Origin: a virus
Length of the DNA stretch: 64,000 bases
Virus record (IMG/VR): IMGVR_UViG_3300005573_000004
Coordinates: 1-64,000 of that record
Direction: 5' to 3' (one strand)
The notes under the pieces were generated by a model. That model made no database searches, was not told the origin of the DNA, and saw only the letters and a program-made list of their open reading frames with translations. The position numbers were made by a program, and so were the translations under genes. Positions 1,387-25,250 of this stretch are shown here, piece by piece (the stretch's first letter is position 1; the number at the start of each line of letters is the position of its first letter).

Positions 1387-1409
1387 TGCTTCTCATCTCC
1401 TTTTTTAAA

Positions 1410-1438
1410 ATTTTACAAAATTTAATTTAAATTGTCAA
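1410..1438 (-). promoter_or_regulatory. sigma70/sigmaA-type promoter TTGACA-N17-TAAAAT
   Basis: Near-consensus hexamers with 17-bp spacer upstream of 847..1386. Confidence 0.7.
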
Positions 1439-2262: not shown

Positions 2263-2263
2263 T

Positions 2264-2989: not shown

Positions 2990-2999
2990 TTTAGTCCTC

Positions 3000-3620: not shown

Positions 3621-3643
3621 CGCTCTTACCTCCTTAGTATTAA

Positions 3644-4276: not shown

Positions 4277-4298
4277 AGAGCACCTCCTTTAATATTGT

Positions 4299-4799: not shown

Positions 4800-5314
4800 C
4801 TCTCTGCTCCATATTTTAATAATAATCTTACTATATTATATTTTCTTCTACGCTCAGCCCAATCTAATGCTGTTTCCCATCTATCATTCATAGCATTAAC
4901 ATCTGCTCCTGCTTTTAATAATAATTTTACTGTTCCAATATTTCCATAATCAGCAGCTTTCATAAGAGCAGTGTTATTAAAATGATCTCTAGCATTTACA
5001 TCTGCTCCTGCTTCTAATAATAATTTTACAATTTTAGTATATCCTTCTGTGCAAGCTACTATAAGAGGAGTCCACCCATCATAATCTTTGCAATTAACAT
5101 CAGCTCCGACATCTAATAAGAATTTAACTACTCCATAATGTCCATTAAGGCAAGCTTCCAAAAGAGCTGTCCACCCTTTTGAATCTTTATTATTAATAGA
5201 TTCCATTAAATTAAATTGTTTATATTCAGGATATAATTTTTCTAAAGTTACTAACCTAGCAAATACACTAGCTCTCTTATTTTTTAGAAACCTCTTTAAT
5301 TTTAAAGCTTCCAT
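4796..5314 (-). CDS. ankyrin-repeat protein (~4 repeats)
   Basis: Ankyrin consensus; shared N-terminal module. Confidence 0.93.
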   Translation of the reverse strand: MEALKLKRFLKNKRASVFARLVTLEKLYPEYKQFNLMESINNKDSKGWTALLEACLNGHYGVVKFLLDVGADVNCKDYDGWTPLIVACTEGYTKIVKLLLEAGADVNARDHFNNTALMKAADYGNIGTVKLLLKAGADVNAMNDRWETALDWAERRRKYNIVRLLLKYGAER

Positions 5315-10232: not shown

Positions 10233-11279
10233 TTATTTTTTAGCTCCTGCTTTTTTCAAGAGTTCTACTATTTCAGTATGCCCAAATTTCTTTGCCAACC
10301 TTAAAGCAGTTTCTCCATCGTTATTTCTAGCATTTACATCAGCTCCTGCTTTTATTAATAGCTTCACTACATCAGTATGTCCATAGGTACTAGCCCATAT
10401 TAAAGCAGTCCATCCCCGTCTATCTTTAGCATTTACATCCGCTCCTGCTTTAATTAATAATTTTGCTATTTTAGTATTCAAATGTGCACTAGCAGATACT
10501 AAAGCAGCATTACCCCGTTTATCTTTAGCGTTCATATCCGCTCCTGCTTTAATTAATAGTTTTACTACTTCAGTATGTCCACGATCACTAGCTTCTAAAA
10601 GAGCAGTATTTCCATTTATAGTTTTAGCATTAACATCAGCTCCAGCTTTTAATAATAATTTTACCACTTCAGTTCTACCATCTATACTAGCCTCAATAAG
10701 AGCAGTTTCTCCATCTATAGTTTTAGCATTAACATCAGCTCCAGCTTCTATTAACTTTTTAACCAAGTCAGTTTGACCCTCTGCACTAGCACACATTAAA
10801 GCAGTATATCCATCTTTATCTTTAGCATTTACATCCGCTCCTGCTTTAATTAATAATTTTGCTACTTTAGTATCCAAAGTTCCACTAGCTATTATTAAAG
10901 CAGTATCACCCCGTCTATCTTTAGCATTAATATCCGCTCCTGCTTTTAATAATAATTTTACTACTTTAGGATGCCCGTTAAGACTAGCCAACATCAAAGC
11001 AGTTTCTCCCAAAGTATATTCCTTAGCATTTACATCAGCTCCTGCTTTAATTAATAATTCTACTACTTCAGTTAACCCGTGTCCACTAACATGCATTAAA
11101 GCAGTTTCTCCACTATCATTTATTACAGTATTAACTTTATCTGGAAATGCATTAGCAATCTGATAATCAGCCCATAGCTTTTTTAGAGCCATCAATCTAG
11201 AATATATACTTGCAGTTCTATCTTTTACTAGTTTTGATAAATCTTTCTGATATGGAGTAAGTTCGTCCATATATAACAC
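10233..11279 (-). CDS. ankyrin-repeat protein (~9 repeats)
   Basis: Highly regular KAGADVNAK..GxTALxxAS repeats; shared N-terminal module. Confidence 0.95.
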   Translation of the reverse strand: MLYMDELTPYQKDLSKLVKDRTASIYSRLMALKKLWADYQIANAFPDKVNTVINDSGETALMHVSGHGLTEVVELLIKAGADVNAKEYTLGETALMLASLNGHPKVVKLLLKAGADINAKDRRGDTALIIASGTLDTKVAKLLIKAGADVNAKDKDGYTALMCASAEGQTDLVKKLIEAGADVNAKTIDGETALIEASIDGRTEVVKLLLKAGADVNAKTINGNTALLEASDRGHTEVVKLLIKAGADMNAKDKRGNAALVSASAHLNTKIAKLLIKAGADVNAKDRRGWTALIWASTYGHTDVVKLLIKAGADVNARNNDGETALRLAKKFGHTEIVELLKKAGAKK

Positions 11280-11285
11280 CTCCTT

Positions 11286-11585
11286 TTAGTTTTTAGTTAT
11301 GGTTAATATATGACCATAATCTTCTTTATCTTTTAATGGATAAAAGACTCTTGCTTTTATAATTGAATTATTCTGTAATACTCGTTCAAGCACCCCCTTT
11401 CTTATTGCAGGAAATTCAACAACTGCAGTTCTATTTTCAGTAATACCCACAAATTCAGTTTTAGTGGCTTCAAACTCTAAATTAATTAATTCAAGATTAC
11501 TACTAATTTGATTTAAGATATTTTTCATAGAGCACCTCCGTATAATAAGATATCTAACTGAGAAAATATTACAATGAATAGCCAT
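11286..11585 (-). CDS. hypothetical protein (likely start 11528, MKNILNQ)
   Basis: GGAGGTG RBS precedes the internal Met. Confidence 0.5.
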   Translation of the reverse strand: MAIHCNIFSVRYLIIRRCSMKNILNQISSNLELINLEFEATKTEFVGITENRTAVVEFPAIRKGVLERVLQNNSIIKARVFYPLKDKEDYGHILTITKN

Positions 11586-11716
11586 AATAAAACTAATATT
11601 ATCAACGCAGTTATAACTCTACCAATCGGATGCTCAAGGCAAATATACTCTATCCATTCATCTAAAGTTCTTGGCTTAATAAATCTCTTGCTATTCTTAA
11701 TAATAAACCAATTCAT
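11525..11716 (-). CDS. small membrane protein
   Basis: Hydrophobic stretch VITALIILVLLWLFIVIF. Confidence 0.55.
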   Translation of the reverse strand: MNWFIIKNSKRFIKPRTLDEWIEYICLEHPIGRVITALIILVLLWLFIVIFSQLDILLYGGAL

Positions 11717-11946
11717 TATTCTACCTCCTTATTAGTTTTAGACCAATCAATTTCTTGAATCTTATACGTTTCTCTTAACAACATCTTCGCAGTTCCAATC
11801 ACAGCCCCAGTCTTACTCCAAGTTAATGCTACTGTCTTGTCATCAAATAACTGAGGCTGTATTCTTATTCCAACTTCGTTTAATAAATCTTCTAATACGA
11901 TATCACCTACACCAATCTTTACATCTTTGTTTTTCATAGTTATCAC
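11716..11946 (-). CDS. hypothetical protein
   Basis: Packed ORF with RBS. Confidence 0.55.
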   Translation of the reverse strand: MITMKNKDVKIGVGDIVLEDLLNEVGIRIQPQLFDDKTVALTWSKTGAVIGTAKMLLRETYKIQEIDWSKTNKEVE

Positions 11947-12371
11947 CTCCTTTTAGCTCCATATTGTTTTAGTAATTTTACTATTTTAATATAACCAGAA
12001 TCAATAGCCTTCACAAGAGCAGTATTTCCCCATTTATCTTTAGCATTAACATCAGCTCCAGCTTCTAATAATAACTTTACTATTTCAGTATGTCCATAGT
12101 CGCTAGCCCACTTTAAAGCAGTATCTCCATCTATAGTTTTAGCATTTACATCTGCTCCTGCTTCCAATAATAACTTCACTACTTCAATATGCCCATACAT
12201 ACTAGCCCACATTAAAGCAGTATCTCCATCTTTATCGCAACTATTAATATCAAATTCTAAATCAAATCTACCATATTCTTCAGGATATAACTTCCTTATA
12301 GCCATTAATCTAGTATAAATAGATGCAGTATCATCAGCTAATACTTTCTTTAATTCTTCTTTAGTAATCAT
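11943..12371 (-). CDS. ankyrin-repeat protein (3 repeats)
   Basis: Ankyrin consensus; shared N-terminal module. Confidence 0.94.
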   Translation of the reverse strand: MITKEELKKVLADDTASIYTRLMAIRKLYPEEYGRFDLEFDINSCDKDGDTALMWASMYGHIEVVKLLLEAGADVNAKTIDGDTALKWASDYGHTEIVKLLLEAGADVNAKDKWGNTALVKAIDSGYIKIVKLLKQYGAKRR

Positions 12372-13811: not shown

Positions 13812-14960
13812 CTATTTGCTTTTACTCTTATTTTTATTCTTAGCTCCCGCTTCTTTAAGCAATGAATCATAATAACTACTGAATTTTTCACCTTTACAAG
13901 TCAAGGATTCAAATAATATCACATCTTTTTCTACAATACCACGTCCAAAACTCGTAATAATCTCTGCTACCGGCTCAGTTTCTACTAATTTATCTAAAAA
14001 TGGCTGTATTTTCTTCAGTAGTTTTTCTCTTATTTCTTTGTTTGGTTCAAAATCTACAGGAAATAAGATAGCAAGCACATCATTCAATGCTGATTTACGT
14101 TTCATAGGATTATTCTTAGCCGCTTCATATCTACTCCAAGCAGTTTTATCCAATTCCAACAATTTTTCCGCATTTATCACGGAATCTTTAATGAATTCGG
14201 CAAACAAACTTACTGTGCTTGGAGATAAGAAGCCTGATGCATACATTAAGATCTTATCTTGATCTTCATCTTTATCGGGATCTAATCCCATCTGTTTTAC
14301 AATATTGTCTAACTGAGACCAGCCCCTTGGATTGCTCCACGGTTCAAATGGAGCATCTTTTTTCGGGCGGACATAGAACACTTTGCTTTCATACGCCTTA
14401 ATAAAATCTGCGATGGCTTTCACTGGCTTTTGGAATTCAATCCACGCATCAATCTCTGGTCTTCTTACGGCAAAAATCATACCTCTTCCACCAGTTAACG
14501 CAGTGCTAAACGCCTTCGCAAATGTTCCATCTTCACCGCCCATATTCCCAAGCAGAACGAATAACGTTCCCTTGGGAAGTTTAACTCCATCTATTTCTTT
14601 CTGCCAAATCACATCTAAAATCGCACCCTGAACATCTTCTGCGGCCAATGTTGCTTCATCACATATTACAACTGCCTTTCCATTTGCTTCTATTACTTCT
14701 TTCCAGAAGTAAGGAAGCTTCCATTGCGTATAAGTCCCACTGACATCTGGAATACCTTTGATGTCATAGGGTTCAATCCTTCCCAAGGAAATTTTTACTG
14801 CTTTTCTCCCTTCTTCGGCAACCACCTGCTCAATGCCGAAGGATTTTCCAATACCAGGGTCACCAAAGAACATCACTGTTGGTGGGTCAGGAAGTTTCAT
14901 TAACCCCCTGACAAGTTCTTTCATCTCTGTGACTGTAACTACTTTTAAATTGGATGCCAT
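13812..14960 (-). CDS. MoxR-like AAA+ ATPase
   Basis: Walker A GDPGIGKS, Walker B VICDE, NPRGW motif. Confidence 0.85.
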   Translation of the reverse strand: MASNLKVVTVTEMKELVRGLMKLPDPPTVMFFGDPGIGKSFGIEQVVAEEGRKAVKISLGRIEPYDIKGIPDVSGTYTQWKLPYFWKEVIEANGKAVVICDEATLAAEDVQGAILDVIWQKEIDGVKLPKGTLFVLLGNMGGEDGTFAKAFSTALTGGRGMIFAVRRPEIDAWIEFQKPVKAIADFIKAYESKVFYVRPKKDAPFEPWSNPRGWSQLDNIVKQMGLDPDKDEDQDKILMYASGFLSPSTVSLFAEFIKDSVINAEKLLELDKTAWSRYEAAKNNPMKRKSALNDVLAILFPVDFEPNKEIREKLLKKIQPFLDKLVETEPVAEIITSFGRGIVEKDVILFESLTCKGEKFSSYYDSLLKEAGAKNKNKSKSK

Positions 14961-14995
14961 AAGACACCTCCTTCAGATTAATTAGATTAATACTG

Positions 14996-15031
14996 TGTCA
15001 GCGTATTATTAATTCCCCGCTGACAAGGGAA
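14996..15031 (-). promoter_or_regulatory. H-type pseudoknot element (fully covaried variant) upstream of the MoxR gene
   Basis: TTCCC T TGTCAGCG GGGAA TTAATAATA CGCTGACA. Confidence 0.7.
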
Positions 15032-15032
15032 G

Positions 15033-15061
15033 ATTTTAATATAATTTTACTGCAATGTCAA
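15033..15061 (-). promoter_or_regulatory. sigma70-type promoter TTGACA-N17-TAAAAT
   Basis: Near-consensus hexamers with 17-bp spacer. Confidence 0.65.
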
Positions 15062-15064
15062 GCT

Positions 15065-15736
15065 TTATTTTGTCTCACCTCCCTTCTCATTATGTATCTT
15101 CATATACTCTAACAGCTTTTCATACATAAATTCACCAGGCTTTATATCTGCTCCTGCCTTTACCAGCTCTAACATTACTGAAAAAGCATTCATTCTACTG
15201 GCATATGCTAGAGCGGTTTGTCCTAATTTATTCTTTATATTAACATCGGCTCCAGCAGATATTAGAGCTTTGACTATATCAACTCTATCATCAAAATTAT
15301 AGGCAGCTTTCATAAGAGCAGTGTCTCCGTCATTATCTTGAGCATTTATATCTGCTCCTGCCTTTATTAAAAGATTAACTATTGTATCACTATTATACAT
15401 ACAAGCAAACATAAGTGGACTTGTTCCAAAATAATCTTTGGCATTTATATCAGCTCCTGCTTCTATGAGAAGCTCTGCAACCTTAGTATGCCAATGTTCA
15501 CAAGTAATCATAAGAGCTGTTCTATTATATTCATTTTTTGCATCAATATCAATTTCTAAATCAAATTCTTCATAAATATCTGGATATAATTTTTTTAATG
15601 CCACAATACGAGAGAATAGACTGGCATTTTTGTCTAATAATAATTCTAATAATTCATTCCGATTATACCGATTATCCATAATAACACCCCTTTCAATAAA
15701 ATTATCTGAAAACTTTATATACTGTTTCTTTTCCAA
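15065..15736 (-). CDS. ankyrin-repeat protein (~5 repeats; likely start at MDNRYN)
   Basis: Ankyrin consensus; shared N-terminal module. Confidence 0.92.
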   Translation of the reverse strand: MEKKQYIKFSDNFIERGVIMDNRYNRNELLELLLDKNASLFSRIVALKKLYPDIYEEFDLEIDIDAKNEYNRTALMITCEHWHTKVAELLIEAGADINAKDYFGTSPLMFACMYNSDTIVNLLIKAGADINAQDNDGDTALMKAAYNFDDRVDIVKALISAGADVNIKNKLGQTALAYASRMNAFSVMLELVKAGADIKPGEFMYEKLLEYMKIHNEKGGETK

Positions 15737-15944
15737 ACAATTTAGAGAGCATATAAACCCAGCCGTGTTCCCTTATTGCACTCTCTAAACAATGTTTGGT
15801 TTTAATCTGAATAATCTTTCCGCCAGGTGTTAAGAACTTTGCTTGTTCTATTTCATCTGGCATTACTTTTTTCCAATAGATATCAAACGGAGCTGGGTAT
15901 CCGTATGATTCTAATTGTTTTTGTATTAAGTCCTTAACGTTCAT
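15702..15944 (-). CDS. hypothetical protein
   Basis: Packed ORF, overlapping start/stop with upstream gene. Confidence 0.55.
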   Translation of the reverse strand: MNVKDLIQKQLESYGYPAPFDIYWKKVMPDEIEQAKFLTPGGKIIQIKTKHCLESAIREHGWVYMLSKLFGKETVYKVFR

Positions 15945-16132
15945 AATGTGCCTCCATCCTTCATGGTCTTTTTTATTTGCCGCATTACATCTCTGATAGC
16001 TGCTTTATAAGCATACTCCAGAGTTAATTTCTTAACAAACTTTGGGCGAACATATTTTTGCCCAAAGAATTTCATATGTTTCTTCATCCTTTCTTCTGTA
16101 GTGATTACCGGAGCATTAAAAATGTCTTTCAT
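15941..16132 (-). CDS. hypothetical protein
   Basis: AGGAGGTG RBS. Confidence 0.55.
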   Translation of the reverse strand: MKDIFNAPVITTEERMKKHMKFFGQKYVRPKFVKKLTLEYAYKAAIRDVMRQIKKTMKDGGTL

Positions 16133-16150
16133 AAAGCACCTCCTATAGGA

Positions 16151-16564
16151 TTAGTATTCACGGAAACGAACGAATTTAAATTCGCTCGTTTTAATTCCGT
16201 CTTTTTCCACAGCAATTCTTGCTGTGGTCGCTGCAACAGGAACTTTTCCCTGTGCGAGCAATTCATTTACAAGCATATGCGTCAAGGTATGTTCACCTTG
16301 AATCATAATATGCTTGTAATTATATTTATTTAATTTCTTTAATACTTTTTGAGCTAACTTTGTTACATCTTCCTTAGATGCCTCAGGTGGCACCATAGGA
16401 AAATGAATATCAACTATCTGGGATGCTACGTGAGGAGCATATCCCTCAGTAGCAATGCTGTATAATGCGTCCCTTTGTTCTTGGGACCATTTGTTGCTCG
16501 GGTGATTGCTTAAATTTATCGCAACCACCTTTAAATTGTGTTCTAATGTTAATTCTAATTCCAT
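16151..16564 (-). CDS. Csx20-like CRISPR-associated ring-nuclease homolog (candidate anti-type-III protein)
   Basis: INLSNHPS.KWS.EQ, FP.VPPEAS, IQGE.TLT..LV, PV.ATT.R, K.SEF.FVRFREY match my recollection of the Csx15/16/20 group. Confidence 0.72.
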   Translation of the reverse strand: MELELTLEHNLKVVAINLSNHPSNKWSQEQRDALYSIATEGYAPHVASQIVDIHFPMVPPEASKEDVTKLAQKVLKKLNKYNYKHIMIQGEHTLTHMLVNELLAQGKVPVAATTARIAVEKDGIKTSEFKFVRFREY

Positions 16565-16629
16565 ATTACACCTCCTTTAGTTGCCTATGTATTATTTCCC
16601 CCATAGGCAGGGGAGAATTAAGAAATAGT

Positions 16630-17106
16630 TTATTTCAATCTTACGTCAGGAAGGATCTTAACTGTGCTGTCCATCTTGACAACACAATTAATCCCCCTCT
16701 TCTGCAACGCCGGTACTAAGAGGAACATTAGCACCGGAGTGCAGTCTATGAAGGCGATTTTATCCTCGCCTTCAGATATGTTTTGTAAATATATATTATC
16801 CATTCTTTTCAGGATATCATCAACAATATCCTGAAAGAAACTATAGTAATCCCCATTGGGATCACTATAGATAACTTCACTTTCCGTCTTTTCAGACGGA
16901 AAGTAATTATACTTTGTGAAGTTAATAATCTCTACGTCATCCCATTTGGGAGTGGCGTAGAACGTAGTTGCATTATCTATGATTATCACTCCTTCCTTTC
17001 CCGTGGTTGGATCTGCTTTATCCCCCATAAAGCAGTCCAAAATTTTTTCTTTCAGCTCTGGACTCCAGCGTTCTGCTGGAGTATTTGAAAAATTAAAAAG
17101 CTTCAT
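16630..17106 (-). CDS. divergent Csx15/Csx20-like paralog, copy 1
   Basis: LFNFSNTPAERWSPE aligns to INLSNHPSNKWSQE; C-terminal AFID...LVPALQKRGI.CV aligns to MIQG...LVNELLAQGKVPV. Confidence 0.5.
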   Translation of the reverse strand: MKLFNFSNTPAERWSPELKEKILDCFMGDKADPTTGKEGVIIIDNATTFYATPKWDDVEIINFTKYNYFPSEKTESEVIYSDPNGDYYSFFQDIVDDILKRMDNIYLQNISEGEDKIAFIDCTPVLMFLLVPALQKRGINCVVKMDSTVKILPDVRLK

Positions 17107-17161
17107 ATTACACCTCCTTTAGTTGCCTATGTATTATTTCCCCCATAGGCAGGGGAGAATT

Positions 17162-17464
17162 TTATTTATTATTTAATATTAATTTCTTGACAAACATATT
17201 AAGGGCATTTACTAAATACCCTTTTAAATGCATAATATAATATGTAGCGTATTCACCTCCTTCCGATCCGAAATCAACTTTCTTTACGAAGTAAAATGGA
17301 TCCTTCAGCTGTGCTGAAGAATCCTTTACTTCTACTACTGAATATGCAGGCCCTGGAATATATATCTCACAGGGACCTGTAAATCCTAACGCTTTGGAGC
17401 CTATAATATGCTCCAAAGATTTTTGTAACTCTTCTTTGCTTGAAAATTCTTTTAATTCTATCAT
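17162..17464 (-). CDS. small early protein, family B
   Basis: Near-identical to 18568..18870; RBS and pseudoknot leader. Confidence 0.7.
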   Translation of the reverse strand: MIELKEFSSKEELQKSLEHIIGSKALGFTGPCEIYIPGPAYSVVEVKDSSAQLKDPFYFVKKVDFGSEGGEYATYYIMHLKGYLVNALNMFVKKLILNNK

Positions 17465-17523
17465 ATTACACCTCCTTTAGTTGCCTATGTATTCTTATTT
17501 CCCCCATAGGCAGGGGAGAATTT

Positions 17524-17970
17524 TTATTCCCCAAATATTTTCTTCATCAAATCAGCCACCAACTTTTTGGTGGCTTCTTCATCGTGCTTAACCCACTTGA
17601 GTGAGTTAAGCCATTTTTTGTGGAGAGCTACTTTCTTCTCCACATGTTTCTTATTCTTGTCCCCATACTCTCCTTCGTGTATGGGGACTACAGAATAAAC
17701 ATCATTCGGTAAATCTTTTATATTGATATTTTCCGGAAGATGTCCGTCATCTACGACACCTCCGGAAAATGTTTTAATCTTACAATATTGTAATACAGAG
17801 AGATTACTCTTCTCTGTATCGTATACTTCCCCTTCTTCTGTGAAGAGGGGAAACTCTACCACATCGCCTGGAGCCCAGGCGATTACTACTTCTTCCCCCT
17901 GAATATATAACTCGTGAAGAAGTTTTTGAACTTCTTCAGAGTCATAATTGTTATTTTTTAATTTTATCAT
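17524..17970 (-). CDS. hypothetical acidic early protein
   Basis: RBS and pseudoknot leader. Confidence 0.7.
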   Translation of the reverse strand: MIKLKNNNYDSEEVQKLLHELYIQGEEVVIAWAPGDVVEFPLFTEEGEVYDTEKSNLSVLQYCKIKTFSGGVVDDGHLPENINIKDLPNDVYSVVPIHEGEYGDKNKKHVEKKVALHKKWLNSLKWVKHDEEATKKLVADLMKKIFGE

Positions 17971-18035
17971 AAGACACCTCCTACAAATTTGCCTATGTAT
18001 TATATTCCCCCATAGGCAGGGGAGAATTAAGAATA

Positions 18036-18512
18036 TTATTTTAACCTTACTTCTGGTAAAACTTTAAATGTGTTGTCAAAACGGACAACACATTTAATTT
18101 CTCTTCTCTGCAACGCCGGTACTAAGAAGAACATCAGTACCGGAGTGCAGTCTATGAAGGCGATTTTATCCTCGCCTTCAGATATGTTTTGTAAATATAT
18201 ATTATCCATTCTTTTCAGGATATCATCAACAATATCCTGAAAGAAACTATAGTAATCCCCATTGGGATCACTATAGATAACTTCACTTTCCGTCTTTTCA
18301 GACGGAAAGTAATTATACTTTGTGAAGTTAATAATCTCTACGTCATCCCATTTGGGAGTGGCGTAGAACGTAGTTGCATTATCTATGATTATCACTCCTT
18401 CCTTTCCCGTGGTTGGATCTGCTTTATCCCCCATAAAGCAGTCCAAAATTTTTTCTTTCAGCTCTGGACTCCAGCGTTCTGCTGGAGTATTTGAAAAATT
18501 AAAAAGCTTCAT
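18036..18512 (-). CDS. divergent Csx15/Csx20-like paralog, copy 2
   Basis: Identical to 16630..17106 except in the last ~30 aa. Confidence 0.5.
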   Translation of the reverse strand: MKLFNFSNTPAERWSPELKEKILDCFMGDKADPTTGKEGVIIIDNATTFYATPKWDDVEIINFTKYNYFPSEKTESEVIYSDPNGDYYSFFQDIVDDILKRMDNIYLQNISEGEDKIAFIDCTPVLMFFLVPALQRREIKCVVRFDNTFKVLPEVRLK

Positions 18513-18567
18513 ATTACACCTCCTTTAGTTGCCTATGTATTATTTCCCCCATAGGCAGGGGAGAATT

Positions 18568-18870
18568 TTATTTATTATTTAATATTAATTTCTTGACAAA
18601 CATATTAAGGGCATTTACTAAATACCCTTTTAAATGCATAATATAATATGTAGCGTATTCACCTCCTTCCGATCCGAAATCAACTTTCTTTACGAAGTAA
18701 AATGGATCCTTCAGCTGTGCTGAAGAATCCTTTACTTCTACTACTGAATATGCAGGCCCTGGAATATATATCTCACAGGGACCTGTAAATCCTAACGCTT
18801 TGGAGCCTATAATATGCTCCAAAGATTTTTGTAACTCTTCAACTGTGTTAAATTCTTTTAATTCTATCAT
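18568..18870 (-). CDS. small early protein, family B
   Basis: Duplicate of 17162..17464, offset 1406 bp. Confidence 0.7.
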   Translation of the reverse strand: MIELKEFNTVEELQKSLEHIIGSKALGFTGPCEIYIPGPAYSVVEVKDSSAQLKDPFYFVKKVDFGSEGGEYATYYIMHLKGYLVNALNMFVKKLILNNK

Positions 18871-18977
18871 ATTACACCTCCTTTTATAGCCTATGTATTA
18901 TTTCCCCCATAGGCAGGGGAGAATTTTTTTGCCTATAAATATTTTAGCTTCCTATAGGCAGGAAGCTAAACGAATTA

Positions 18978-19262
18978 TTAGAGATTACCCGCTAATAATT
19001 CGTTTAAAAATATCGTATTAGCATACTCTACGTTCCCTTTTACATAGATAATAGAGAACGTAACCTCTTCATAAGAGGCTTTCTTCACTATATAAAATTT
19101 ATGCTTCAATAATAAAGCTTCTTCATTTGCGTATTCTAATGCCCCGGCAATCCCTTGAACATAGATGCTTTCATCTTCCTTTTGAGAGGCGATAGCCTCT
19201 TTTAAGGAAGCTAGCAACTCTGGCATACCTGATACTTCTTTTACTTTAACATCTACATGCAT
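18978..19262 (-). CDS. small early protein, family B
   Basis: EL..SL...I.S, IY..G.A, LK..FY.VKK, I...KG motifs shared with 17162..17464. Confidence 0.65.
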   Translation of the reverse strand: MHVDVKVKEVSGMPELLASLKEAIASQKEDESIYVQGIAGALEYANEEALLLKHKFYIVKKASYEEVTFSIIYVKGNVEYANTIFLNELLAGNL

Positions 19263-19442
19263 ACGATGCCTCCTTTCATAGCCTATGTATTCTTATTTCC
19301 CCCATAGGCAGGGGAAAATTTAAATCCCCTTTAGGCGGGGTCAAAGAACTTTTGGAAGCGGAGAGTCTATGCTCCCCGCTTCCAAATAGCCTACGTATAT
19401 TTTAGCTCCCCCGTAGGCTGGGAGCTTAAGGAACTAATGTTC

Positions 19443-19859
19443 TTATTTTTTGGACATTAGTTCCTTAAGCTTTTTTTCCTCCTGCTCCCGCCTATTGGAG
19501 CGGTTTTTGTCAATTGCCTCTTTTAAAACTGGGAGGCTTGCCTCCCAGTTTATCCCTCCCCAACTATATTCATTAGCTAAGGCCATAATGGTCTTAGCTA
19601 CCTTGTCGGAATCAATACATTCCGACAAATTAGTAAAAATCCTGATATGGGGAACTCTGTTCCCCATATCCTCAAAAATCACCAAGGCGTTCCATGACAC
19701 CTTGGTGATTATCTCTTTCACCTTGGCGGGGGTATCAAGACCCCACCAAGTAAGATTTAAGAATTCCCCGCCTTTGACGAGGAATTCATTTCTTCTGGCA
19801 TATGGGTTTCCTCCCCATACGCCTTCCATTTGGTCTACCAATATAAATTTGGATTCCAT
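19443..19859 (-). CDS. hypothetical early protein
   Basis: RBS and pseudoknot leader. Confidence 0.7.
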   Translation of the reverse strand: MESKFILVDQMEGVWGGNPYARRNEFLVKGGEFLNLTWWGLDTPAKVKEIITKVSWNALVIFEDMGNRVPHIRIFTNLSECIDSDKVAKTIMALANEYSWGGINWEASLPVLKEAIDKNRSNRREQEEKKLKELMSKK

Positions 19860-20081
19860 AACACACCTCCTTTTATAGCCTATGTATTATATTCCCCCAT
19901 AGGCAGGGGAAGATTTTTCTTGCTTGTTGTTTTTTTACAAGGGGAGCAAGAGCCCCTTGCAAGCCTATATTTTAGGGGCTGGCTTGATGCCCCTTTGGGG
20001 GCGAGAATCAGGGACTTCTGCCCCCAAATAGCCTACGTATGTTTTAGCTCCCCGTAGGCGGGGAGCTACAAAATAACAGGG

Positions 20082-20261
20082 TTATTTCTTTATTTCAAAC
20101 CCTGTTATTTTGTATTTCTGAAGCTGGGCAGGAGCATCTGCCCAGCTCCATAATTTACCCGCAAGGGTAACAGATCCACCCCTGTGGGTAAAAACTATCT
20201 GTTGCACAGGCTTCCCTGTAGCCTGTGCCTTTTTAATGATTCTTAAATTATTCTTCGTCAT
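20082..20261 (-). CDS. 59-aa basic protein (not in ORF track), copy 1
   Basis: AAAGGAGGTGA RBS then MTKNNLRIIKKAQATGKPVQQIVFTHRGGSVTLAGKLWSWADAPAQLQKYKITGFEIKK*. Confidence 0.6.
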   Translation of the reverse strand: MTKNNLRIIKKAQATGKPVQQIVFTHRGGSVTLAGKLWSWADAPAQLQKYKITGFEIKK

Positions 20262-20446
20262 CTGTAATCACCTCCTTTCTTTTAATGAATAGTAGGCTCG
20301 GTTGCTCAAGCCGAGCCTACTTAAAACAAATCCCCTTTAGGCGGGGTCAAAAGAGCGTGTAGAGGCAGGGAGCATAAGCTCCCCTGCCTCTAAGAGCCTA
20401 CGTATATTTTGGCTCCCCGTAGGCGGGGAGTATAAATAAGGTCATT

Positions 20447-20764
20447 CTATTTTTTTAGAATGACCTTATTTATTAAGAATTCTATGGCACTATTTAAAAA
20501 TTCCGGCTTTGTAATAACTTCAAAGCCTGAGTCCATTATTTCATCATCCTGGTAGATCCTCTCTACCAGGAAATAATTTATTTTATCAGTCATTATTATT
20601 ATTTTATCTTTTTCCTCAGAGGAGGAAAAAGATAAAATTTTTTCCATACAGTCCTCTATGAGGACTGTATTATGTTCCCACCAACGGTGGGAATCTATCA
20701 GCCCAACCTTTTGGTTGGATAGCAAATCTTTAATGTCGTTTGAAACTTTTACTTTTACATACAT
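20447..20764 (-). CDS. small early protein (distant family B), copy 1
   Basis: Paralog of 21363..21680; RBS and pseudoknot leader. Confidence 0.7.
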   Translation of the reverse strand: MYVKVKVSNDIKDLLSNQKVGLIDSHRWWEHNTVLIEDCMEKILSFSSSEEKDKIIIMTDKINYFLVERIYQDDEIMDSGFEVITKPEFLNSAIEFLINKVILKK

Positions 20765-21004
20765 AATTACCTCCTATAAGTGCCTATGTATTATATTCCC
20801 CCATAGGCAGGGGAAATTTTTCCTACTCTAACCCGGTAGGACGGGCTTGCCTATGTTTTACAAGGAAGGCAAGCTCCTTGCAAGCCTTTTTAGTTTAGGG
20901 GCAGGCTTGTAGCCCCTTTGGGGGCGAGAATCAGGGACTTCTGCCCCCAAATAGCCTACGTATGTTTTAGCTCCCCGTAGGCGGGGAGCTACAAAATAAC
21001 AGGG

Positions 21005-21184
21005 TTATTTCTTTATTTCAAACCCTGTTATTTTGTATTTCTGAAGCTGGGCAGGAGCATCTGCCCAGCTCCATAATTTACCCGCAAGGGTAACAGATCC
21101 ACCCCTGTGGGTAAAAACTATCTGTTGCACAGGCTTCCCTGTAGCCTGTGCCTTTTTAATGATTCTTAAATTATTCTTCGTCAT
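21005..21184 (-). CDS. 59-aa basic protein, copy 2
   Basis: Duplicate of 20082..20261. Confidence 0.6.
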   Translation of the reverse strand: MTKNNLRIIKKAQATGKPVQQIVFTHRGGSVTLAGKLWSWADAPAQLQKYKITGFEIKK

Positions 21185-21362
21185 CTGTAATCACCTCCTT
21201 TCTTTTAATGAATAGTAGGCTCGGTTGCTCAAGCCGAACCTACAAAATCCCTTTTAAGCAGGGTCAAAGAACTTTTAGAAGCGGAGAGTCTATGCTCCCC
21301 GCCTCCAAATAGCCTACGTATGTTTATACTCCCCGTAGGCGGGGAGTATAAATAAGGTCATT

Positions 21363-21680
21363 CTATTTTTTTAGAATGACCTTATTTATTAGGAATTCTA
21401 AGGCACTTTCTAAAAACTCAGGCTTTGTAATAACTTCAAAGCCGGAATCAGTTTCTTCATTATCATCCTGGTAGATCCTCTCTACCAGGAAATAATTTAA
21501 TTTATCAGTCATTATTATTTTATCTTTATCCTCCTCTGAGTAGGAGGATAAAACTCCTCCATCGCAATCTACGTAGTATATTGTATTATGTTCCCACCAA
21601 CGGTTGGAACCTGTCATTCCAACCTTTTGGTTGGATAGCAAATCTTTAATGTCGTTTGAAACTTTTACTTTTACATACAT
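21363..21680 (-). CDS. small early protein (distant family B), copy 2
   Basis: Paralog of 20447..20764. Confidence 0.7.
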   Translation of the reverse strand: MYVKVKVSNDIKDLLSNQKVGMTGSNRWWEHNTIYYVDCDGGVLSSYSEEDKDKIIMTDKLNYFLVERIYQDDNEETDSGFEVITKPEFLESALEFLINKVILKK

Positions 21681-21867
21681 ATTACACCTCCTTTTATAGC
21701 CTATGTATTATATTCCCCCATAGGCAGGGGAGAATTTTTTCTTGCTTTTTGTTTTTACAAGGGGAGCAAGAGCCCCTTGAGAGTCTATATTTTATGGAGC
21801 GGACTCAACGCTCCATTTTTTTTTATCACCTCCTTTCTTTATGCTTCCTTGCAAAAGCAAGGAAGCA

Positions 21868-21980
21868 TTTATTATAATATATAGATAATATATTATATTA
21901 TTATAATATATTATCTATATATTATCTATATATTATATTATTATAATATTATATTATTATAATATTATTATTATTTTAAT
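21868..21980. repeat. almost pure A/T, partly palindromic tract
   Basis: TATTATATTATTATAA-type repeats with only a few G/C. Confidence 0.8.
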
Positions 21981-22052
21981 TCTCATAAGAGAAGAAGAAA
22001 GAGTTGATGATGGCCGTAGAATCCGCTATATATCCCCTTCAAAACCAGGAGA

Positions 22053-22252
22053 ATTTTGGAATTTAGGGTCCCCTGGAACCCAAAATTTTCTATAGGAAAA
22101 ATTTTTGGAATTTAGGGTCCCCTGGAACCCAAAATTTTCTATAGGAAAAATTTTTGGAATTTAGGGTCCCCTTTAACCTAAAAATTTCTATAGGAAAAAT
22201 TTTAGGGTCCCCCTGAACCGAAAATTTTCTATAGGAAAAATTTTTGGAATTT
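22053..22252. repeat. four tandem ~49-bp repeats
   Basis: GGGTCCCC cores at 22066, 22115, 22164, 22205, each followed by AAAA(T/A)TTTCTATAGGAAAAATTTT. Confidence 0.9.
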
Positions 22253-22275
22253 CCGCCCCCATAATTACTCCATAC

Positions 22276-22347
22276 CGTGAATACTGTGAATACTGTGAAT
22301 ACTGTGGATAATGTGTATAATGTGTATAATGTGAATAATGTGAATAA
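22276..22347 (-). promoter_or_regulatory. head-to-tail DnaA-box array
   Basis: TTATCCACA (22303-22311), TTATACACA x2, TTATTCACA x2, plus three degenerate boxes, all abutting at 9-bp period. Confidence 0.75.
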
Positions 22348-22407
22348 GGCAATTAAACTGCCGTATAGATATTTAGAAGGAAGTAGGAAGGAATATATTG
22401 GGTAGAA

Positions 22408-22452
22408 ATAAAAAAGCCGTTAACCAGCCTATTTCACACTGATTAACGGCTT
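22408..22452 (-). terminator. intrinsic terminator
   Basis: AAGCCGTTAA...TTAACGGCTT stem followed by a T tract on the minus strand, after 22480..22761. Confidence 0.7.
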
Positions 22453-22479
22453 ATATTAAGTATATTAGTCTTTGGTAGT

Positions 22480-22761
22480 TCAGTTTTCAAAAATTTTTAT
22501 AAAGGGATAAATTATAAAAGCTATTCCTAAAAATCCTATTATAAAAGAAACAACAAGTCCTAACAATTTTAAAGAAGATTCTAACCCAACTATAAAATTA
22601 TGATAAAAATCACAACACGGTAATGACCAAACGTGCCCACAATTCCAAAATCCTATTACAATACTTCCTAAAATAATTGCAATAGTTAATAAAATTAACC
22701 CTTTCGCTATATACATCATATACATCAATTGATAGATACCAAAATTAATTTTGTTTTTCAT
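22480..22761 (-). CDS. two-TM membrane protein
   Basis: Two long hydrophobic segments. Confidence 0.6.
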   Translation of the reverse strand: MKNKINFGIYQLMYMMYIAKGLILLTIAIILGSIVIGFWNCGHVWSLPCCDFYHNFIVGLESSLKLLGLVVSFIIGFLGIAFIIYPFIKIFEN

Positions 22762-23087
22762 TTTGTACCTTCCTTTCTGTATATTAGCCCTTTTCCATAT
22801 TTTTTGGCAATTTTTATTTCACGTTTCATGCCTTCTGTTATCCCTTTTTCGTTGTTTATATATACCATATCACAAATAGATACTAATTGTCCACAAAAAC
22901 TTAAAATTCTTTCCCTGGTCTTTTCATCCTCTTTTTCTATGAAACTAAAATTTAAATGAGGAATTACAGGTATATAGTTCAAACCTAAATCAAAAATTTC
23001 TTTACCTAATTTCTTGGCTATTTCTATATTCTTTTTTATACCTTTTTTGGTTTTTGCACTATATGGACTACAAATATAAACTAGCAT
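22758..23087 (-). CDS. DUF4406-like / nucleoside 2-deoxyribosyltransferase-fold protein
   Basis: VYICSPYS, P..PHL, CD.V, GM..EI..A motifs. Confidence 0.7.
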   Translation of the reverse strand: MLVYICSPYSAKTKKGIKKNIEIAKKLGKEIFDLGLNYIPVIPHLNFSFIEKEDEKTRERILSFCGQLVSICDMVYINNEKGITEGMKREIKIAKKYGKGLIYRKEGTK

Positions 23088-23088
23088 A

Positions 23089-23472
23089 TTATATCTCCTG
23101 ATTTTTGGGCAAATCCATAGTTCCTCTATTTAGTTCAAGCGTTGTTCTTATTTTTGCTTCTAGTTTGTCACTTAAATAATAAAAAGCTGCCCAGGGGTCT
23201 GTTTCTTCACCACACGTGAAAAGATCAACTGCAGCATAACCGTGCTCCGGCCATGTATGTATAGCAAGATGCGATTCCGCCACAACTACTACTCCACTCA
23301 CTCCGTGCGGACTGAATTTGTGGAATACTACCTGCACAATCGTAGACTTAGACTCCTTCGCCGCCTCTGTCATCGCCTCTTCAATAAATTTTAAATCGTT
23401 CAACTTCTTTTTATTACACCCGTAAAATTCAACTAGTAAATGCTTTCCCAAACTTTTCAATTTAAGGTTCAC
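23089..23472 (-). CDS. speH: S-adenosylmethionine decarboxylase proenzyme
   Basis: [35 protein letters not shown] (E-SH autocleavage site), DLFTCG. Confidence 0.93.
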
Positions 23473-23496
23473 CTCTATTTTTTTAAAATTTTTTAA

Positions 23497-23531
23497 GCCT
23501 ACGTATATTTTTTCTCCCCGTAGGCTGGGAG
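23497..23531 (-). promoter_or_regulatory. type-B pseudoknot element upstream of speH
   Basis: CTCCC A GCCTACG GGGAG AAAAAATATA CGTAGGC. Confidence 0.75.
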
Positions 23532-23627
23532 CAAAAGAAAGGTAGGAGTGAGTAAAACTAGTATATTATTCCTCTGATCCCATTAATGATATCATATACC
23601 ATTTCCTTTTCATCCTCAGTAAGAGGC

Positions 23628-24052: not shown

Positions 24053-24502
24053 TTAATTTTTTGCTCCATATCGTTTTAATAATTTTACTATTTCCTTATG
24101 GCCATATACAGAAGCTAAATCTATCAATGAATCTCCATCTTGAGTTCTGACGTTTATATCAGCTCCAGATTCTAAAAGAAATTTAGCTATCTCTTTATTT
24201 CCATTCAAACACGCTACAGTAAGTGCCGTCCAACAAGCATTGTCTTTCGCATTTATATCTGAACCTGCTTCTAGAAAAAATTTTACTAAGTCTAGGTTTT
24301 GTTCAGCACATGCCTTCATTAAGGCTGTAGTTCCAAGAACCGTTCTATTGTCAATATTGGATATTAAATTAAATTCTTCATATTCCGGATATAATTTTAC
24401 CAATGCAACAAGTTTTGCCACTAAACTAGCATTTTTATCATTTAATAAATTTAATAATTCATCTTTAACTTTTTGTGATTTGATGGCTTTCTTTGGCTCC
24501 AT
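24053..24502 (-). CDS. ankyrin-repeat protein (3 repeats)
   Basis: Ankyrin consensus; shared N-terminal module. Confidence 0.92.
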   Translation of the reverse strand: MEPKKAIKSQKVKDELLNLLNDKNASLVAKLVALVKLYPEYEEFNLISNIDNRTVLGTTALMKACAEQNLDLVKFFLEAGSDINAKDNACWTALTVACLNGNKEIAKFLLESGADINVRTQDGDSLIDLASVYGHKEIVKLLKRYGAKN

Positions 24503-25250
24503 ATGACTCCAATAATTTTATCATTTCAATATTATTACTAACTCTGGCTTTGTCTAAAACCGTATACCCAGTATTATCTATCTCATTTACATTAGCTCCC
24601 GCTTTTAATAATATTTTTACTACGTCAATGCTATTAACCATACAAGCTAATGCAAGAGGAGTTCGGTTCCGTAAATCCTTAGCATTTAAATCAGCTCCAG
24701 CCTTTATTAACGTTTCTATAACTTTTGTGTCTCCAGAAACACAAGCTAACATAAGAGGAGTTTCAGAGTCATTGTTTCTATCATTGGCATTTGCTCCAAA
24801 TTTTAATAATAATTTGACTATAGCATCATTCCCGTGTAGACTGGCTAACATAATAGCAGTATTACCATTTTTATCTCTACTATTTACATCTGCTCCTACT
24901 TCTAATAAAAATTTTACTATTTTTACGTGATCGTACGAGCTAGCTAATTGAAGTGCAGTCCATCCAGCCAATTGAGTTTTCCAAATTGCATCAATATTTA
25001 CTTCTAATGCAAAAACGCTATATAATGGATATAACTTCTTTAACGCTACTAATCTAGACGTAATACTAGCATTTTTATTATTAAAAAGTTCCAGCAATTC
25101 CTTCCTTTCTTCCTTACTCATAACATTTTTATCATCTATATAGTGATTTGGTATTATTTCTTTTATTTCCTCTAATTCTTTGCGTCTTTTCGCTTTTAAA
25201 AGACTTGCTACACTATCATATTTTTTTGATTTCCTTGAAGTTTTACTCAC
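24465..25250 (-). CDS. ankyrin-repeat protein (~5 repeats)
   Basis: Ankyrin consensus; shared module begins at EERKELLELF. Confidence 0.92.
   Translation of the reverse strand: MSKTSRKSKKYDSVASLLKAKRRKELEEIKEIIPNHYIDDKNVMSKEERKELLELFNNKNASITSRLVALKKLYPLYSVFALEVNIDAIWKTQLAGWTALQLASSYDHVKIVKFLLEVGADVNSRDKNGNTAIMLASLHGNDAIVKLLLKFGANANDRNNDSETPLMLACVSGDTKVIETLIKAGADLNAKDLRNRTPLALACMVNSIDVVKILLKAGANVNEIDNTGYTVLDKARVSNNIEMIKLLESYGAKESHQITKS

Follow-up and report, generated by a model that had tools for sequence, protein, structure and literature searches.

The window analysed here, a stretch of 64,000 nucleotides, belongs to the genome of an uncultured phage of 149,961 bp (~150 kb). Twelve small genes lie on its minus strand between 16.15 and 21.87 kb, and the 5.7-kb block that they form with their spacers is structured throughout, the coding sequences as much as the spacers between them. 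No Pfam family was found for the block proteins. One of these, of 137 aa (gene 16151-16564), aligns over positions 6-124 of 124 with the NCBIfam profile CAS_Csx20 (NF040559) at an E-value of 3.4e-12, with a score of 46.8 bits that lies below the curated cut-off of 70. Judged from this profile match, the gene likely encodes an anti-CRISPR enzyme, a Csx20-like ring nuclease. The block contains three Csx20-like paralogues and the family has 14 members across the clade; a tblastn search of cultured phages with the Csx20-like protein gave no match. Csx20 is a proven cA4 ring nuclease known from a few phages (10.1101/2024.09.24.614671). The start of the block adjoins a DnaA-box and iteron-like region. 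The features of the locus are as follows.

16151..21868, minus: hyper-structured block, 12 small genes (105, 59, 105, 59, 138, 94, 100, 158, 148, 100, 158 and 137 aa) and spacers, saturated with hairpins and pseudoknots, coding and non-coding
21841..21868, minus: perfect 12-bp hairpin that opens the operon leader, immediately past an A/T-only tract
21837-21829, minus: Shine-Dalgarno-like GAAAGGAGG, followed by 12 nt and then the minigene (read from sequence)
21816-21805, minus: 3-codon minigene AUG GAG CGU UGA, overlapping stem 1 of the first knot
21781..21816, minus: PK1 variant AUGGAGCG-uu-GAGUC-CGCUCCAU-AAAAUAUA-GACUC (knot scan)
21740..21779, minus: PK2, CAAGGGG-c-UCUUGCU-CCCCUUG-L3-AGCAAGA (knot scan)
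21699..21731, minus: class A leader knot, 18 nt 5' of the ATG of gene 21680-21363
21348..21389, minus: 18-bp perfect hairpin across the stop of the 105-aa gene, repeated at 20473-20432
21312..21350, minus: class B knot, stop codon 12 nt upstream
20954..20991, minus: class B knot 3' of the 59-aa gene, adjoining the 17-bp hairpin at its stop codon
20781..20917, minus: stack of PK1 (20917-20881), PK2 (20880-20845), a small knot (20845-20821) and class A (20815-20781)
20396..20430, minus: class B knot (genome knot scan)
20031..20068, minus: class B knot (genome knot scan)
19878..19994, minus: stack of PK1 (19994-19960), PK2 (19959-19918) and class A (19911-19878)
19388..19426, minus: class B knot (genome knot scan)
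19281..19317, minus: class A leader knot (knot scan and gene positions)
18889..18969, minus: class B variant (18969-18930), then class A (18920-18889)
18530..18562, minus: class A leader knot (knot scan and gene positions)
17990..18023, minus: class A leader knot (knot scan and gene positions)
17482..17517, minus: class A leader knot (knot scan and gene positions)
17124..17156, minus: class A leader knot (knot scan and gene positions)
16582..16614, minus: class A leader knot upstream of the Csx20-like gene
14996..15031, minus: class A variant upstream of a MoxR-like ATPase gene
23496..23531, minus: isolated class-B-type knot, 23 nt 5' of the start of a SAM decarboxylase gene

The initial annotation had described five types of pseudoknot motif, stacked in tandem in the intergenic spacers, and had offered a comparison with dinucleotide shuffles as a check. 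All five were found again by direct reading and by the knot scan on the minus strand, at 21816-21781, at 21779-21740 and 19959-19918, at 19994-19960 and 20917-20881, at 20880-20845, and at 20845-20821, the last being a weaker motif with a 4-bp stem. Gaps between adjacent knots are only 0-8 nt, which makes them true stacks. Perfect H-type knots (S1 of at least 5, S2 of at least 6, L1 of 0-2 and L3 of 3-14) were sought exhaustively, and 26 were found on the minus strand between 14900 and 23600, compared with 0.57 ± 0.76 (maximum 3) in 60 dinucleotide shuffles. When knots with at least six G-C pairs were counted on the minus strand of the whole genome, 24 of 27 fell within 14996-23531, and the other three look like chance matches. 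On the plus strand the whole genome holds three GC-rich knots, two of which are reverse-complement echoes of block elements. The mean dimensions of 24 knots are S1 6.4, L1 0.6, S2 7.2 and L3 8.3 nt, and each of the two stems is stable by itself (-10.1 and -9.1 kcal/mol on average). When the spacers are folded with nested pairing, z-scores are only -1.9 to -3.8, because such a fold can hold just one stem of each knot.

At least ten distinct stem-sequence types occur among the knots, and there are roughly four families that are unrelated to one another (A/B, PK1, PK2 and a small fifth). The description of the knots as unrelated in sequence is correct between families, but the variants within each family are homologues linked by compensatory changes. 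The PK1 variant at 21781..21816 is connected to the other PK1 copies through UAGGAGCG/CAAGC in the related phage L083, and the class B variant at 18969-18930 has CUUCC/GGAAG and GCCUAUA/UAUAGGC, compensatory in both stems. In the ATPase leader, stem 2 is formed by UGUCAGCG/CGCUGACA, whereas the orthologous site of L053 has UGGUG/CACCA instead. Covariance models did not place these elements in a described family. A search of the 64 kb at Rfam gathering scores returned a tRNA as the single match, a search of 19700-22100 at E<=10 gave nothing relevant, and no family of Rfam 15, among them preQ1-I/II, SAM-II, ToxI, UPSK, xrRNA and CRISPR-DR, matched the knots at gathering score. A preQ1-like riboswitch was rejected in view of the stems, which are variable, the lack of unpaired junction bases and the lack of an Rfam match.

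The positions of the knots relative to the genes are fixed. Class A ends 16-19 nt before the ATG at ten genes (35 nt in one variant), with its 3' end 3-7 nt from a strong Shine-Dalgarno sequence (GGAGG), and it occurs beside the Shine-Dalgarno sequences of 10-11 unrelated genes and nowhere else in the 150 kb. In L053 a hairpin lies between knot and Shine-Dalgarno sequence, so the two do not abut directly in every case. Class B, which begins 8-16 nt past stop codons, follows the stop-codon hairpins. Upstream of the first cistron, promoter-like hexamers are present in the A/T-only tract at ~21.9 kb, and GAAAGGAGG precedes only the 3-codon minigene and no real ORF. A role as readthrough or frameshift stimulator was rejected, since the extension past the stop codon would comprise just 17 codons and the majority of knots lie outside a distance of 5-9 nt from a stop.

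That selection acts on the fold, as the initial annotation had proposed, was supported by relatives, which were retrieved by protein search and a structured metagenome pattern and were drawn for the covariation analysis from four metagenome projects. Across these relatives 97.3% of cells were paired. Both sides had changed at 9 of 25 pairs, compared with 3.1 ± 1.3 in shuffles, none of which (0/500) reached 9, and slid controls gave at most two pairs changed on both sides. PK2 was kept outside these pair counts, as its MAFFT alignment was shifted by one column between rows, and its covariation is descriptive. Double changes preserved pairing 38 times and broke it 6 times, while one-sided changes yielded G-U in 79 cases vs A·C in 54. 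Substitutions amount to 6.3% in stems vs ~10.8% in loops, and the low rate in stems indicates purifying selection. The sense strand is the richer in G-U pairs and in excess stability, and the loop geometry of the knots is sterically feasible on the minus strand only.

These observations bear on the possibility that the structures arose at the DNA level and have no RNA function, either as recombination modules or through template-switch 'palindrome correction'. The PeSL (promoter-early stem-loop) elements of T4-type phages, each a strong sigma-70-like early promoter with a terminator hairpin that acts on DNA and transcription (PMC2839356, PMC4122927), are similar in that short conserved regulatory modules lie on either side of small orphan early genes within a hyperplastic region. 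In both cases recombination between copies duplicates and shuffles cassettes (PMC2839356). Here the repeats bound both tandem and dispersed duplications of cassettes, at 16.6-18.9 kb and 19.9-21.8 kb of the window, and the gene order of the cassettes differs in L063, L064, L079 and L083. Template switching can also produce apparently compensatory changes. Unlike PeSL, however, the modules are pseudoknots with RNA-type covariation, they lack conserved promoter hexamers, and folded genes lie between them. The asymmetry of the loops (L1 of 0-1 nt and an A-rich L3 of ~8 nt) is meaningful for one strand only, and the G-U excess on the sense strand, the fixed start and stop spacing and the purifying selection on stems likewise make a purely DNA-level origin very unlikely. 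A TATAAT-like loop 3 is present in just 4 of 11 class A copies and absent from relatives, which argues that the class A knot is not a promoter. This reading of class A was rejected as its hexamers are not conserved; there is neither a -35 hexamer nor a U-tract 3' of the knots.

The closest structural counterpart of class A is found in the T-even phages. Gene 32 mRNA is the most stable T4 message, and gp32 and RegA exert translational control in T4 through RNA binding. The NMR structure of the T2 gene 32 knot reportedly has a stem 1 of ~6 bp and a stem 2 of 7 bp, which are crossed by loops of 7 nt and 1 nt, respectively. Class A resembles the gene 32 element of T2, T4 and RB69 as an H-type knot in a phage 5'-UTR with two coaxial stems, and the averages given above match its dimensions. 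In T2, T4 and RB69 the leader pseudoknot is an autogenous translational operator for a single gene, whose own product binds it. The knot is found ~67 nt upstream, at the distal end of an extended A+U-rich operator that lacks structure (PMC3014915). In contrast, class A is only 3-7 nt from GGAGG with no long unstructured operator, it precedes 11 unrelated small genes with no SSB gene among them, and further knot classes are found after stop codons and in stacks.

Class A could therefore be considered as a translational operator through which a phage or host RNA-binding protein switches the early genes jointly, the other knots being accessory. Its exclusive position beside ribosome-binding sites would fit such a role, as would its geometry, which equals that of the T2/T4 gene 32 knot (PMC3014915), and its sequence, which is almost identical across copies and in L053, with stems that are near-invariant also in L064 and L083. 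However, some copies have an entirely different stem 2 (GCCAGCG, GUCAGCG, UGGUG), which argues against sequence-specific recognition at these sites. Class B, PK1 and PK2 are not adjacent to ribosome-binding sites, an operator leaves the hairpin-saturated coding sequences unexplained, and no candidate binder was identified; a profile search of the genome for gp32 was empty, although its control was uninformative. We consider joint control of this type unlikely, if still worth serious attention. Regulation in trans by antisense RNA was rejected, as no antisense-like copies of leader pieces occur elsewhere in the genome.

The initial annotation placed the structures in the spacers. The spacer knots are real, but their extent was understated, as knots run from 14996 to 23531 and the coding sequences are equally structured. 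Mean MFE z-scores in 120-nt windows are -3.5 to -5.5 in the block vs about -0.3 elsewhere, and 43 of the 76 perfect hairpins of the genome fall in 16-22 kb. Against synonymous-codon shuffles the coding sequences of the block score -3.3 to -11.4, the two genes immediately downstream -3.0 and -3.9, and six control genes +0.5 to -1.4. The same pattern is seen in the related phage L053 (-6.7 to -12.7), and intragenic hairpins are maintained via compensatory changes.

Two further explanations start from this continuous structure. In the first, folding hides early transcripts from the crRNAs of type III or VI systems and delays detection until ring nucleases have been made. Target occlusion requires that coding sequences and spacers are both structured, as they are, and the three Csx20-like paralogues with their 14-member clade family point to a conflict with type III CRISPR. 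Yet only the 5.7-kb block is structured although other transcripts are equally targetable, and a published precedent was not found, which leaves this a rather improbable explanation. In the second, structured nascent RNA denies loading to Rho or prevents R-loops by the origin-like region, so that a long early transcript is completed even if translation is impaired. The structure does continue across the 5.7 kb including the coding sequences, and the DnaA-box and iteron-like region is nearby. Why knots stand so exactly at ribosome-binding sites and stop codons would then be unexplained, and we regard an effect on processivity as extremely unlikely.

The initial annotation had suggested that the stacks are stable non-coding RNAs that act as decoys, or else redundant exonuclease roadblocks. 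A decoy would be produced by processing of the stacks to stable small RNAs, which would sequester a host RNase or an RNA-binding protein of defence in the manner of a ToxI mimic. ToxI consists of identical tandem repeats of 34-45 nt beside a toxin gene of the ToxN/AbiQ family, and its processing is carried out by this toxin. The present knots are similar to ToxI and phage pseudo-ToxI in being pseudoknot units of ~36 nt, encoded by a mobile element or phage in a defence context; units of 33-42 nt with A-rich tails and stacks of 110-140 nt flanked by A-rich linkers could be read in this way. In contrast to ToxI, however, the units are heterogeneous and interleaved with genes, being embedded in mRNA UTRs at fixed distances from starts and stops, and no toxin or RNase partner gene is adjacent. 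Rfam gave no family match even at E<=10, and a search of the genome for ToxN_toxin, a weak one with an uninformative control, was empty. The proposal of decoys found no specific support and appears very doubtful indeed; a property of the whole transcript is favoured over discrete decoy RNAs because the same selection covers the coding sequences.

The roadblock idea fits the anatomy predicted from the sequence, with knots at the 5' edges of ribosome-binding sites and just 3' of stop codons, and would also fit the operon leader with its terminal hairpin and STAB-SD-like GAAAGGAGG. Firmicute stabilisers, of types known from Bacillus, include the cry3A STAB-SD and hairpins at the 5' terminus through which RNase J1 is blocked (PMC4113751). 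The predicted leader described here would be comparable in combining a terminal hairpin with GAAAGGAGG and no real ORF, and in its proposed block of 5'-to-3' decay. The known Firmicute stabilisers each occur once, at the 5' end of a single transcript, whereas the phage knots stand before every cistron and are mirrored at 3' ends. Several knots placed end to end in a UTR are also known from the upstream pseudoknot domain of tobamoviruses. Viral xrRNAs are mechanical roadblocks that need a ring-forming three-way junction. Both UPSK and xrRNAs, unlike the present knots, are 3' UTR elements of eukaryotic RNA viruses, and no sequence or Rfam similarity to them was detected.

In view of the above, the reading we tentatively prefer, with confidence somewhat short of even, is that the structures serve an immediate-early operon with genes for Csx20-like ring nucleases, as cis-acting RNA armour and as insulators of its ribosome-binding sites. 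The knots would be modules of a polycistronic minus-strand mRNA that starts from the A/T-only tract at ~21.9 kb. Each small gene forms a cassette that begins with a compact H-type knot (S1 ~6 bp, L1 0-1 nt, S2 ~7 bp, A-rich L3 ~8 nt) positioned 3-7 nt before a strong Shine-Dalgarno sequence, followed by a coding sequence in which codon choice builds a chain of hairpins, and then by a long stop-codon hairpin and a second pseudoknot. In some spacers another two or three knots are stacked coaxially. The 5' knots could halt 5'-to-3' exonucleolytic decay by enzymes like RNase J at the border of the ribosome-binding site and hold the Shine-Dalgarno sequence single-stranded whatever the genetic context, while the 3' hairpin and knot could halt 3'-to-5' exonucleases. 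Pairing of the whole transcript would leave little single-stranded RNA to housekeeping or defence endoribonucleases (Csm6/Csx1). Such armour may secure early expression of counter-defence genes such as those for the Csx20-like ring nucleases. We infer transcription of the block, protection from RNases and the link with defence from the architecture described. The presence of RNase J or RNase Y in the host is presumed from the Firmicute-like Shine-Dalgarno sequence.

Several points count against armour. We know of no proof that simple H-type knots block bacterial exonucleases, the near-identical class A sequence could equally reflect recognition by a protein, and heavy structure in coding sequences is expected to slow translation, which would be costly for early genes. 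A more far-reaching version is that the early operon is an 'armoured mRNA', a dedicated counter-defence of a dsDNA phage. The first messages would be near-double-stranded, with cistrons capped by triple-helix-type pseudoknots, and would survive or evade RNA-directed immunity until inhibitors are made; this immunity would comprise type III CRISPR recognition, collateral cleavage by Csm6/Csx1, Cas13 and toxin RNases. We rate this version as unlikely, yet deserving of mention.

We found no published description of an early operon structured in this way. Known structured leaders and 5' stabilisers are single elements, while this locus has at least four unrelated pseudoknot families in ~24 repeats at both ends of cistrons. 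Synonymous codons are arranged such that whole genes fold, with z-scores down to -11 vs synonymous shuffles, and to our knowledge selection of this strength on coding sequences is otherwise known from RNA viruses and not from genes of dsDNA phages. If armour is the true function, survival of mRNA as a counter-defence would be a new layer of the arms race, and the knots (33-40 nt, 3-7 nt from the Shine-Dalgarno sequence) would be compact natural parts to stabilise or insulate genes in Gram-positive hosts. Irrespective of mechanism, the knots fall into covarying families that are new among RNAs and could be modelled.

The feature appears to be restricted to a narrow clade, since the more distant ATPase relatives L055, L057 and L058 (45%, 56% and 54% identity) have no such knots. 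Megablast and tblastn searches of cultured phages found no relative, the DNA polymerase being at most 31% identical, and a search of viral contigs for the locus with the ATPase as single protein gave no match. Exact-sequence scans of IMG/VR with the class A and class B cores returned 52 matches, all of which (52/52) were chance matches that lacked the 3' partner. An adaptation to high temperature is unlikely as the cause of the folding, as only this block is structured and the anticodon stem of the tRNA-Arg of the phage is A-U-rich. The 121-bp 'terminal repeat' of the genome looks like an assembly overlap.

The minus strand of 14900-23600 was searched exhaustively for perfect H-type pseudoknots and yielded 26, against 0.57±0.76 (maximum 3) in 60 dinucleotide-preserving shuffles. 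All motifs quoted in the initial annotation, which described stacked knots in the spacers of 19878-21816, were found on this strand at their coordinates. Counted over the full genome, the minus strand has 27 knots containing six or more G-C pairs, of which 24 are located in 14996-23531 and the remaining three look like chance matches. The plus strand has only three such knots genome-wide, two of which are reverse-complement echoes of elements of the block (16151-21868, minus strand, with 12 small early genes and their spacers). The 24 knots fall into at least ten types by stem sequence and have a mean length of 36 nt, with average values of 6.4 bp for stem 1, 0.6 nt for loop 1, 7.2 bp for stem 2, 0.1 nt for loop 2 and 8.3 nt for loop 3, the latter being 68% A and 25% U. 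Each stem folded alone is stable (averages of -10.1 and -9.1 kcal/mol); the nested-folding z of the spacers is modest (-1.9 to -3.8) because nested folding accommodates only one stem per knot. A loop of 0-1 nt spans the deep groove of the 7-bp stem 2 and about eight A-rich nucleotides span stem 1. This asymmetry makes the fold sterically feasible in the minus-strand sense only, and the minus strand carries all genes of the knot region.

The knots divide into four main classes and a weaker fifth. The earlier description of the knots as unrelated in sequence is correct between the roughly four families, but members within each family are homologous. The classes and the elements of the operon are as follows.

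Class A: UUCCCC-U-GCCUAUG-GGGGAA-AAUAAUA-CAUAGGC; in ten genes, 3' end 16-19 nt upstream of the ATG and 3-7 nt upstream of GGAGG
Class A variant: other stem 2; upstream of the MoxR-like ATPase gene
Class B: CUCCC-C-GCCUACG-GGGAG-AAAAYAUA-CGUAGGC; starts 8-16 nt downstream of stop codons
Stacks in three spacers: PK1-PK2-(small knot)-class A; inter-knot gaps of 0-8 nt
21868-22450: region upstream of the operon; terminator (22430-22414), then DnaA-box and 49-bp-repeat region, then A/T-only tract
21868-21841, minus: 12-bp leader hairpin, first element of the operon
21837-21829, minus: GAAAGGAGG, after the leader hairpin and 12 nt ahead of the minigene
21816-21805, minus: three-codon minigene AUG GAG CGU UGA, its codons forming stem 1 of the first pseudoknot
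21268-21249, 20352-20334 and 19342-19324 (contig L053: 1239-1258, 1698-1717 and 2357-2376): motif GACCCYGYYUAAARGGGAUU

Class B lies directly 3' of perfect hairpins of 17-18 bp that span the stop codon. The upstream region, with abutting TTATNCACA 9-mers resembling DnaA boxes, four repeats of about 49 bp and an A/T-only tract of about 110 bp, is probably an early promoter or origin. The tract immediately precedes the structured operon, and its equivalent in L053 (790-865) lies ahead of the first knot there. The GAAAGGAGG element and the minigene (21805-21837) may act as a ribosome-parking or STAB-SD-type stabiliser. The PK1 and PK2 stems are all based on CAAG/CUUG cores, which are invariant in relatives, and the PK1/PK2 junction GGCUUG|CAAGG is palindromic (e.g. 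19965-19953), so alternative registers or intermolecular pairing are possible. The GACCCYGYYUAAARGGGAUU motif, common to this phage and L053, forms a hairpin of 4 bp, one pair of which shows a compensatory change from C-G to U-A. In the window it opens with TTGACC, so a weak internal promoter could have its -35 hexamer here.

Scans of viral contigs with exact sequences gave only chance matches. Homologues of the ATPase pointed to the related contigs L053 (74% identity) and L056 (86% identity), and in L053 the arrangement is the same, with four identical class A knots coming after an A/T tract. In the orthologous ATPase leader stem 2 is UGGUG/CACCA in L053 and UGUCAGCG/CGCUGACA in the window. 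A structured pattern scan of metagenomes added L063, L064, L076, L078, L079, L083 and L085, on which dozens of knots lie in total, with new variants in, among others, class A stem 2 (GCCAGCG/CGCUGGC), PK1 stem 1 (AGGGCUG/CAGCCCU and GAGCG/CGCUC) and PK2 stem 1 (CAAGGAA/UUCCUUG). In an alignment of 12 stacks, scored for PK1 and class A pairs, 97.3% were paired and 9 of 25 pairs showed two-sided changes, compared to 3.1±1.3 in shuffles (none of 500 as high) and no more than two in slid controls. This supports the proposal that selection acts on the fold. More distant ATPase relatives (45-56% identity) are without these knots, and together with the covariation this indicates a fold selected within a narrow clade. 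The knot could also be a protein-binding operator, in agreement with the near-invariant class A sequence. Against this, stem 2 is exchanged wholesale in some copies, and the coding sequences are structured too. In geometry the knot is the same as the gene 32 knot of T2/T4, but the context that defines the operator there is missing. No family in Rfam matched.

The block coding sequences are as structured as the spacers between them, which extends the original observation, as does the wider knot region of 14996-23531. In 120-nt sliding windows the mean z is -3.5 to -5.5 over 16-22 kb and about -0.3 elsewhere; these 6 kb contain 43 of the 76 perfect hairpins (≥7 bp) of the genome, at 5-19 per kb in block genes versus about 1 per kb in adjacent genes. 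Synonymous-codon shuffles that keep protein and codon usage gave z values of -3.3 to -11.4 for block genes, +0.5 to -1.4 for six control genes, -3.0 and -3.9 for the two genes immediately downstream, and -6.7 to -12.7 for the first four genes of L053. The block genes are real; their products form families common to the relatives, the largest being Csx20-like with 14 members over related contigs.

Selection preserves the hairpins. Where paralogues have diverged, each one carries perfect hairpins of its own; in homologues, double changes kept pairing 38 times and broke it six times, substitution is 6.3% in stems versus about 10.8% in loops and linkers, and one intragenic helix is retained between the window and L053 through five compensatory substitutions. 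Two copies of a 59-aa ORF lie almost wholly within five conserved hairpins:

20082-20261: 59-aa ORF
21005-21184: 59-aa ORF

These hairpins span most of the message and substitutions are located in loops. Relatives preserve the frame, L085 with a 3-nt deletion that stays in frame, and the ORF may function both as an RNA and through its small protein. Selection at the level of the sense RNA is moderately supported: one-sided changes give 79 G-U versus 54 A.C, G-U pairs number 96 on the sense strand versus 39, and the excess stability is larger on the sense strand (-365 vs -327 kcal/mol). The repeats could instead have a recombination or mutational origin like the promoter-early stem-loop (PeSL) cassettes of T4-type phages, and the cassettes do shuffle; yet loop asymmetry, G-U bias and fixed spacing point to a function at the RNA level. 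Genomic behaviour resembles that of PeSL cassettes, but the molecular nature differs.

The most economical reading, in which we infer function, is that knots and hairpins act in cis within an immediate-early mRNA that is polycistronic. Bordering each ribosome-binding site on its 5' side, the knot would be a roadblock against 5'-to-3' decay and also an insulator that keeps the Shine-Dalgarno sequence exposed wherever a cassette lands. The stop-codon hairpin with its class B knot would form a 3' barrier, and pairing across coding sequences would minimise single-stranded RNA. Terminal hairpins and STAB-SD are established types of Bacillus stabiliser (PMC4113751), and the operon leader likewise has a terminal hairpin and a STAB-SD-like element. 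Extension of this reading to resistance against defence RNases is attractive but speculative. The structure could instead block access of crRNA to targets, or guard against Rho or R-loops. For the knots as ToxI-like decoys no specific support was found; the initial annotation had considered a decoy role, and its interpretation is partly supported. In our literature searches we found no account of phage cistrons flanked by arrays of pseudoknots, nor of phage coding sequences saturated with hairpins.

Three block genes belong to the Csx20-like family:

16151-16564, minus: Csx20-like 137-aa gene; NCBIfam CAS_Csx20, full profile, E 3.4e-12
16630-17106 and 18036-18512, minus: two 158-aa paralogues of the 137-aa protein

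The match scores 46.8 bits, below the curated cut-off of 70. The ring nuclease activity of Csx20 on cA4 has been demonstrated, and the enzyme has been found in a few phages (10.1101/2024.09.24.614671). The match and this known activity make an anti-defence early operon plausible, and the genes are candidates for a phage expansion of ring nucleases that counter type III CRISPR.

The window covers the first 64 kb of a viral record of 149,961 bp. Positions 1-121 are identical to 149841-149961; this exact 121-bp 'direct terminal repeat' is probably where a circular or permuted assembly overlaps itself, and not the true ends of the genome. The G+C content is about 31%, ribosome-binding sites are Firmicute-style (AAAGGAGGTG), and DNA polymerase I, DnaB, NrdD, GroEL and SbcC-like proteins are encoded, as is a single sigma-70-family factor, whose gene is at 134 kb. 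A search against cultured phages gave no close relative (DNA polymerase identity ≤31%). Many ankyrin-repeat proteins are encoded, an unusual richness for a phage. Other features are:

847-5314, 10233-12371, 15065-15736 and 24053-25250: ankyrin-repeat genes, at least 11 in the first 25 kb, interspersed with a MoxR-like ATPase and a DUF2201/vWA-type gene
23089-23472: Bacillus-type S-adenosylmethionine decarboxylase (TIGR03330, E 3.8e-46), with an isolated class-B-type pseudoknot upstream
42263-45262: NrdD-like protein of 999 aa; reductase profiles match residues 8-364 and 731-982

Between its reductase matches the NrdD-like protein has an unrelated segment that weakly matches a terminase large-subunit profile at 631-707; this segment may have been inserted as an intein or homing endonuclease.
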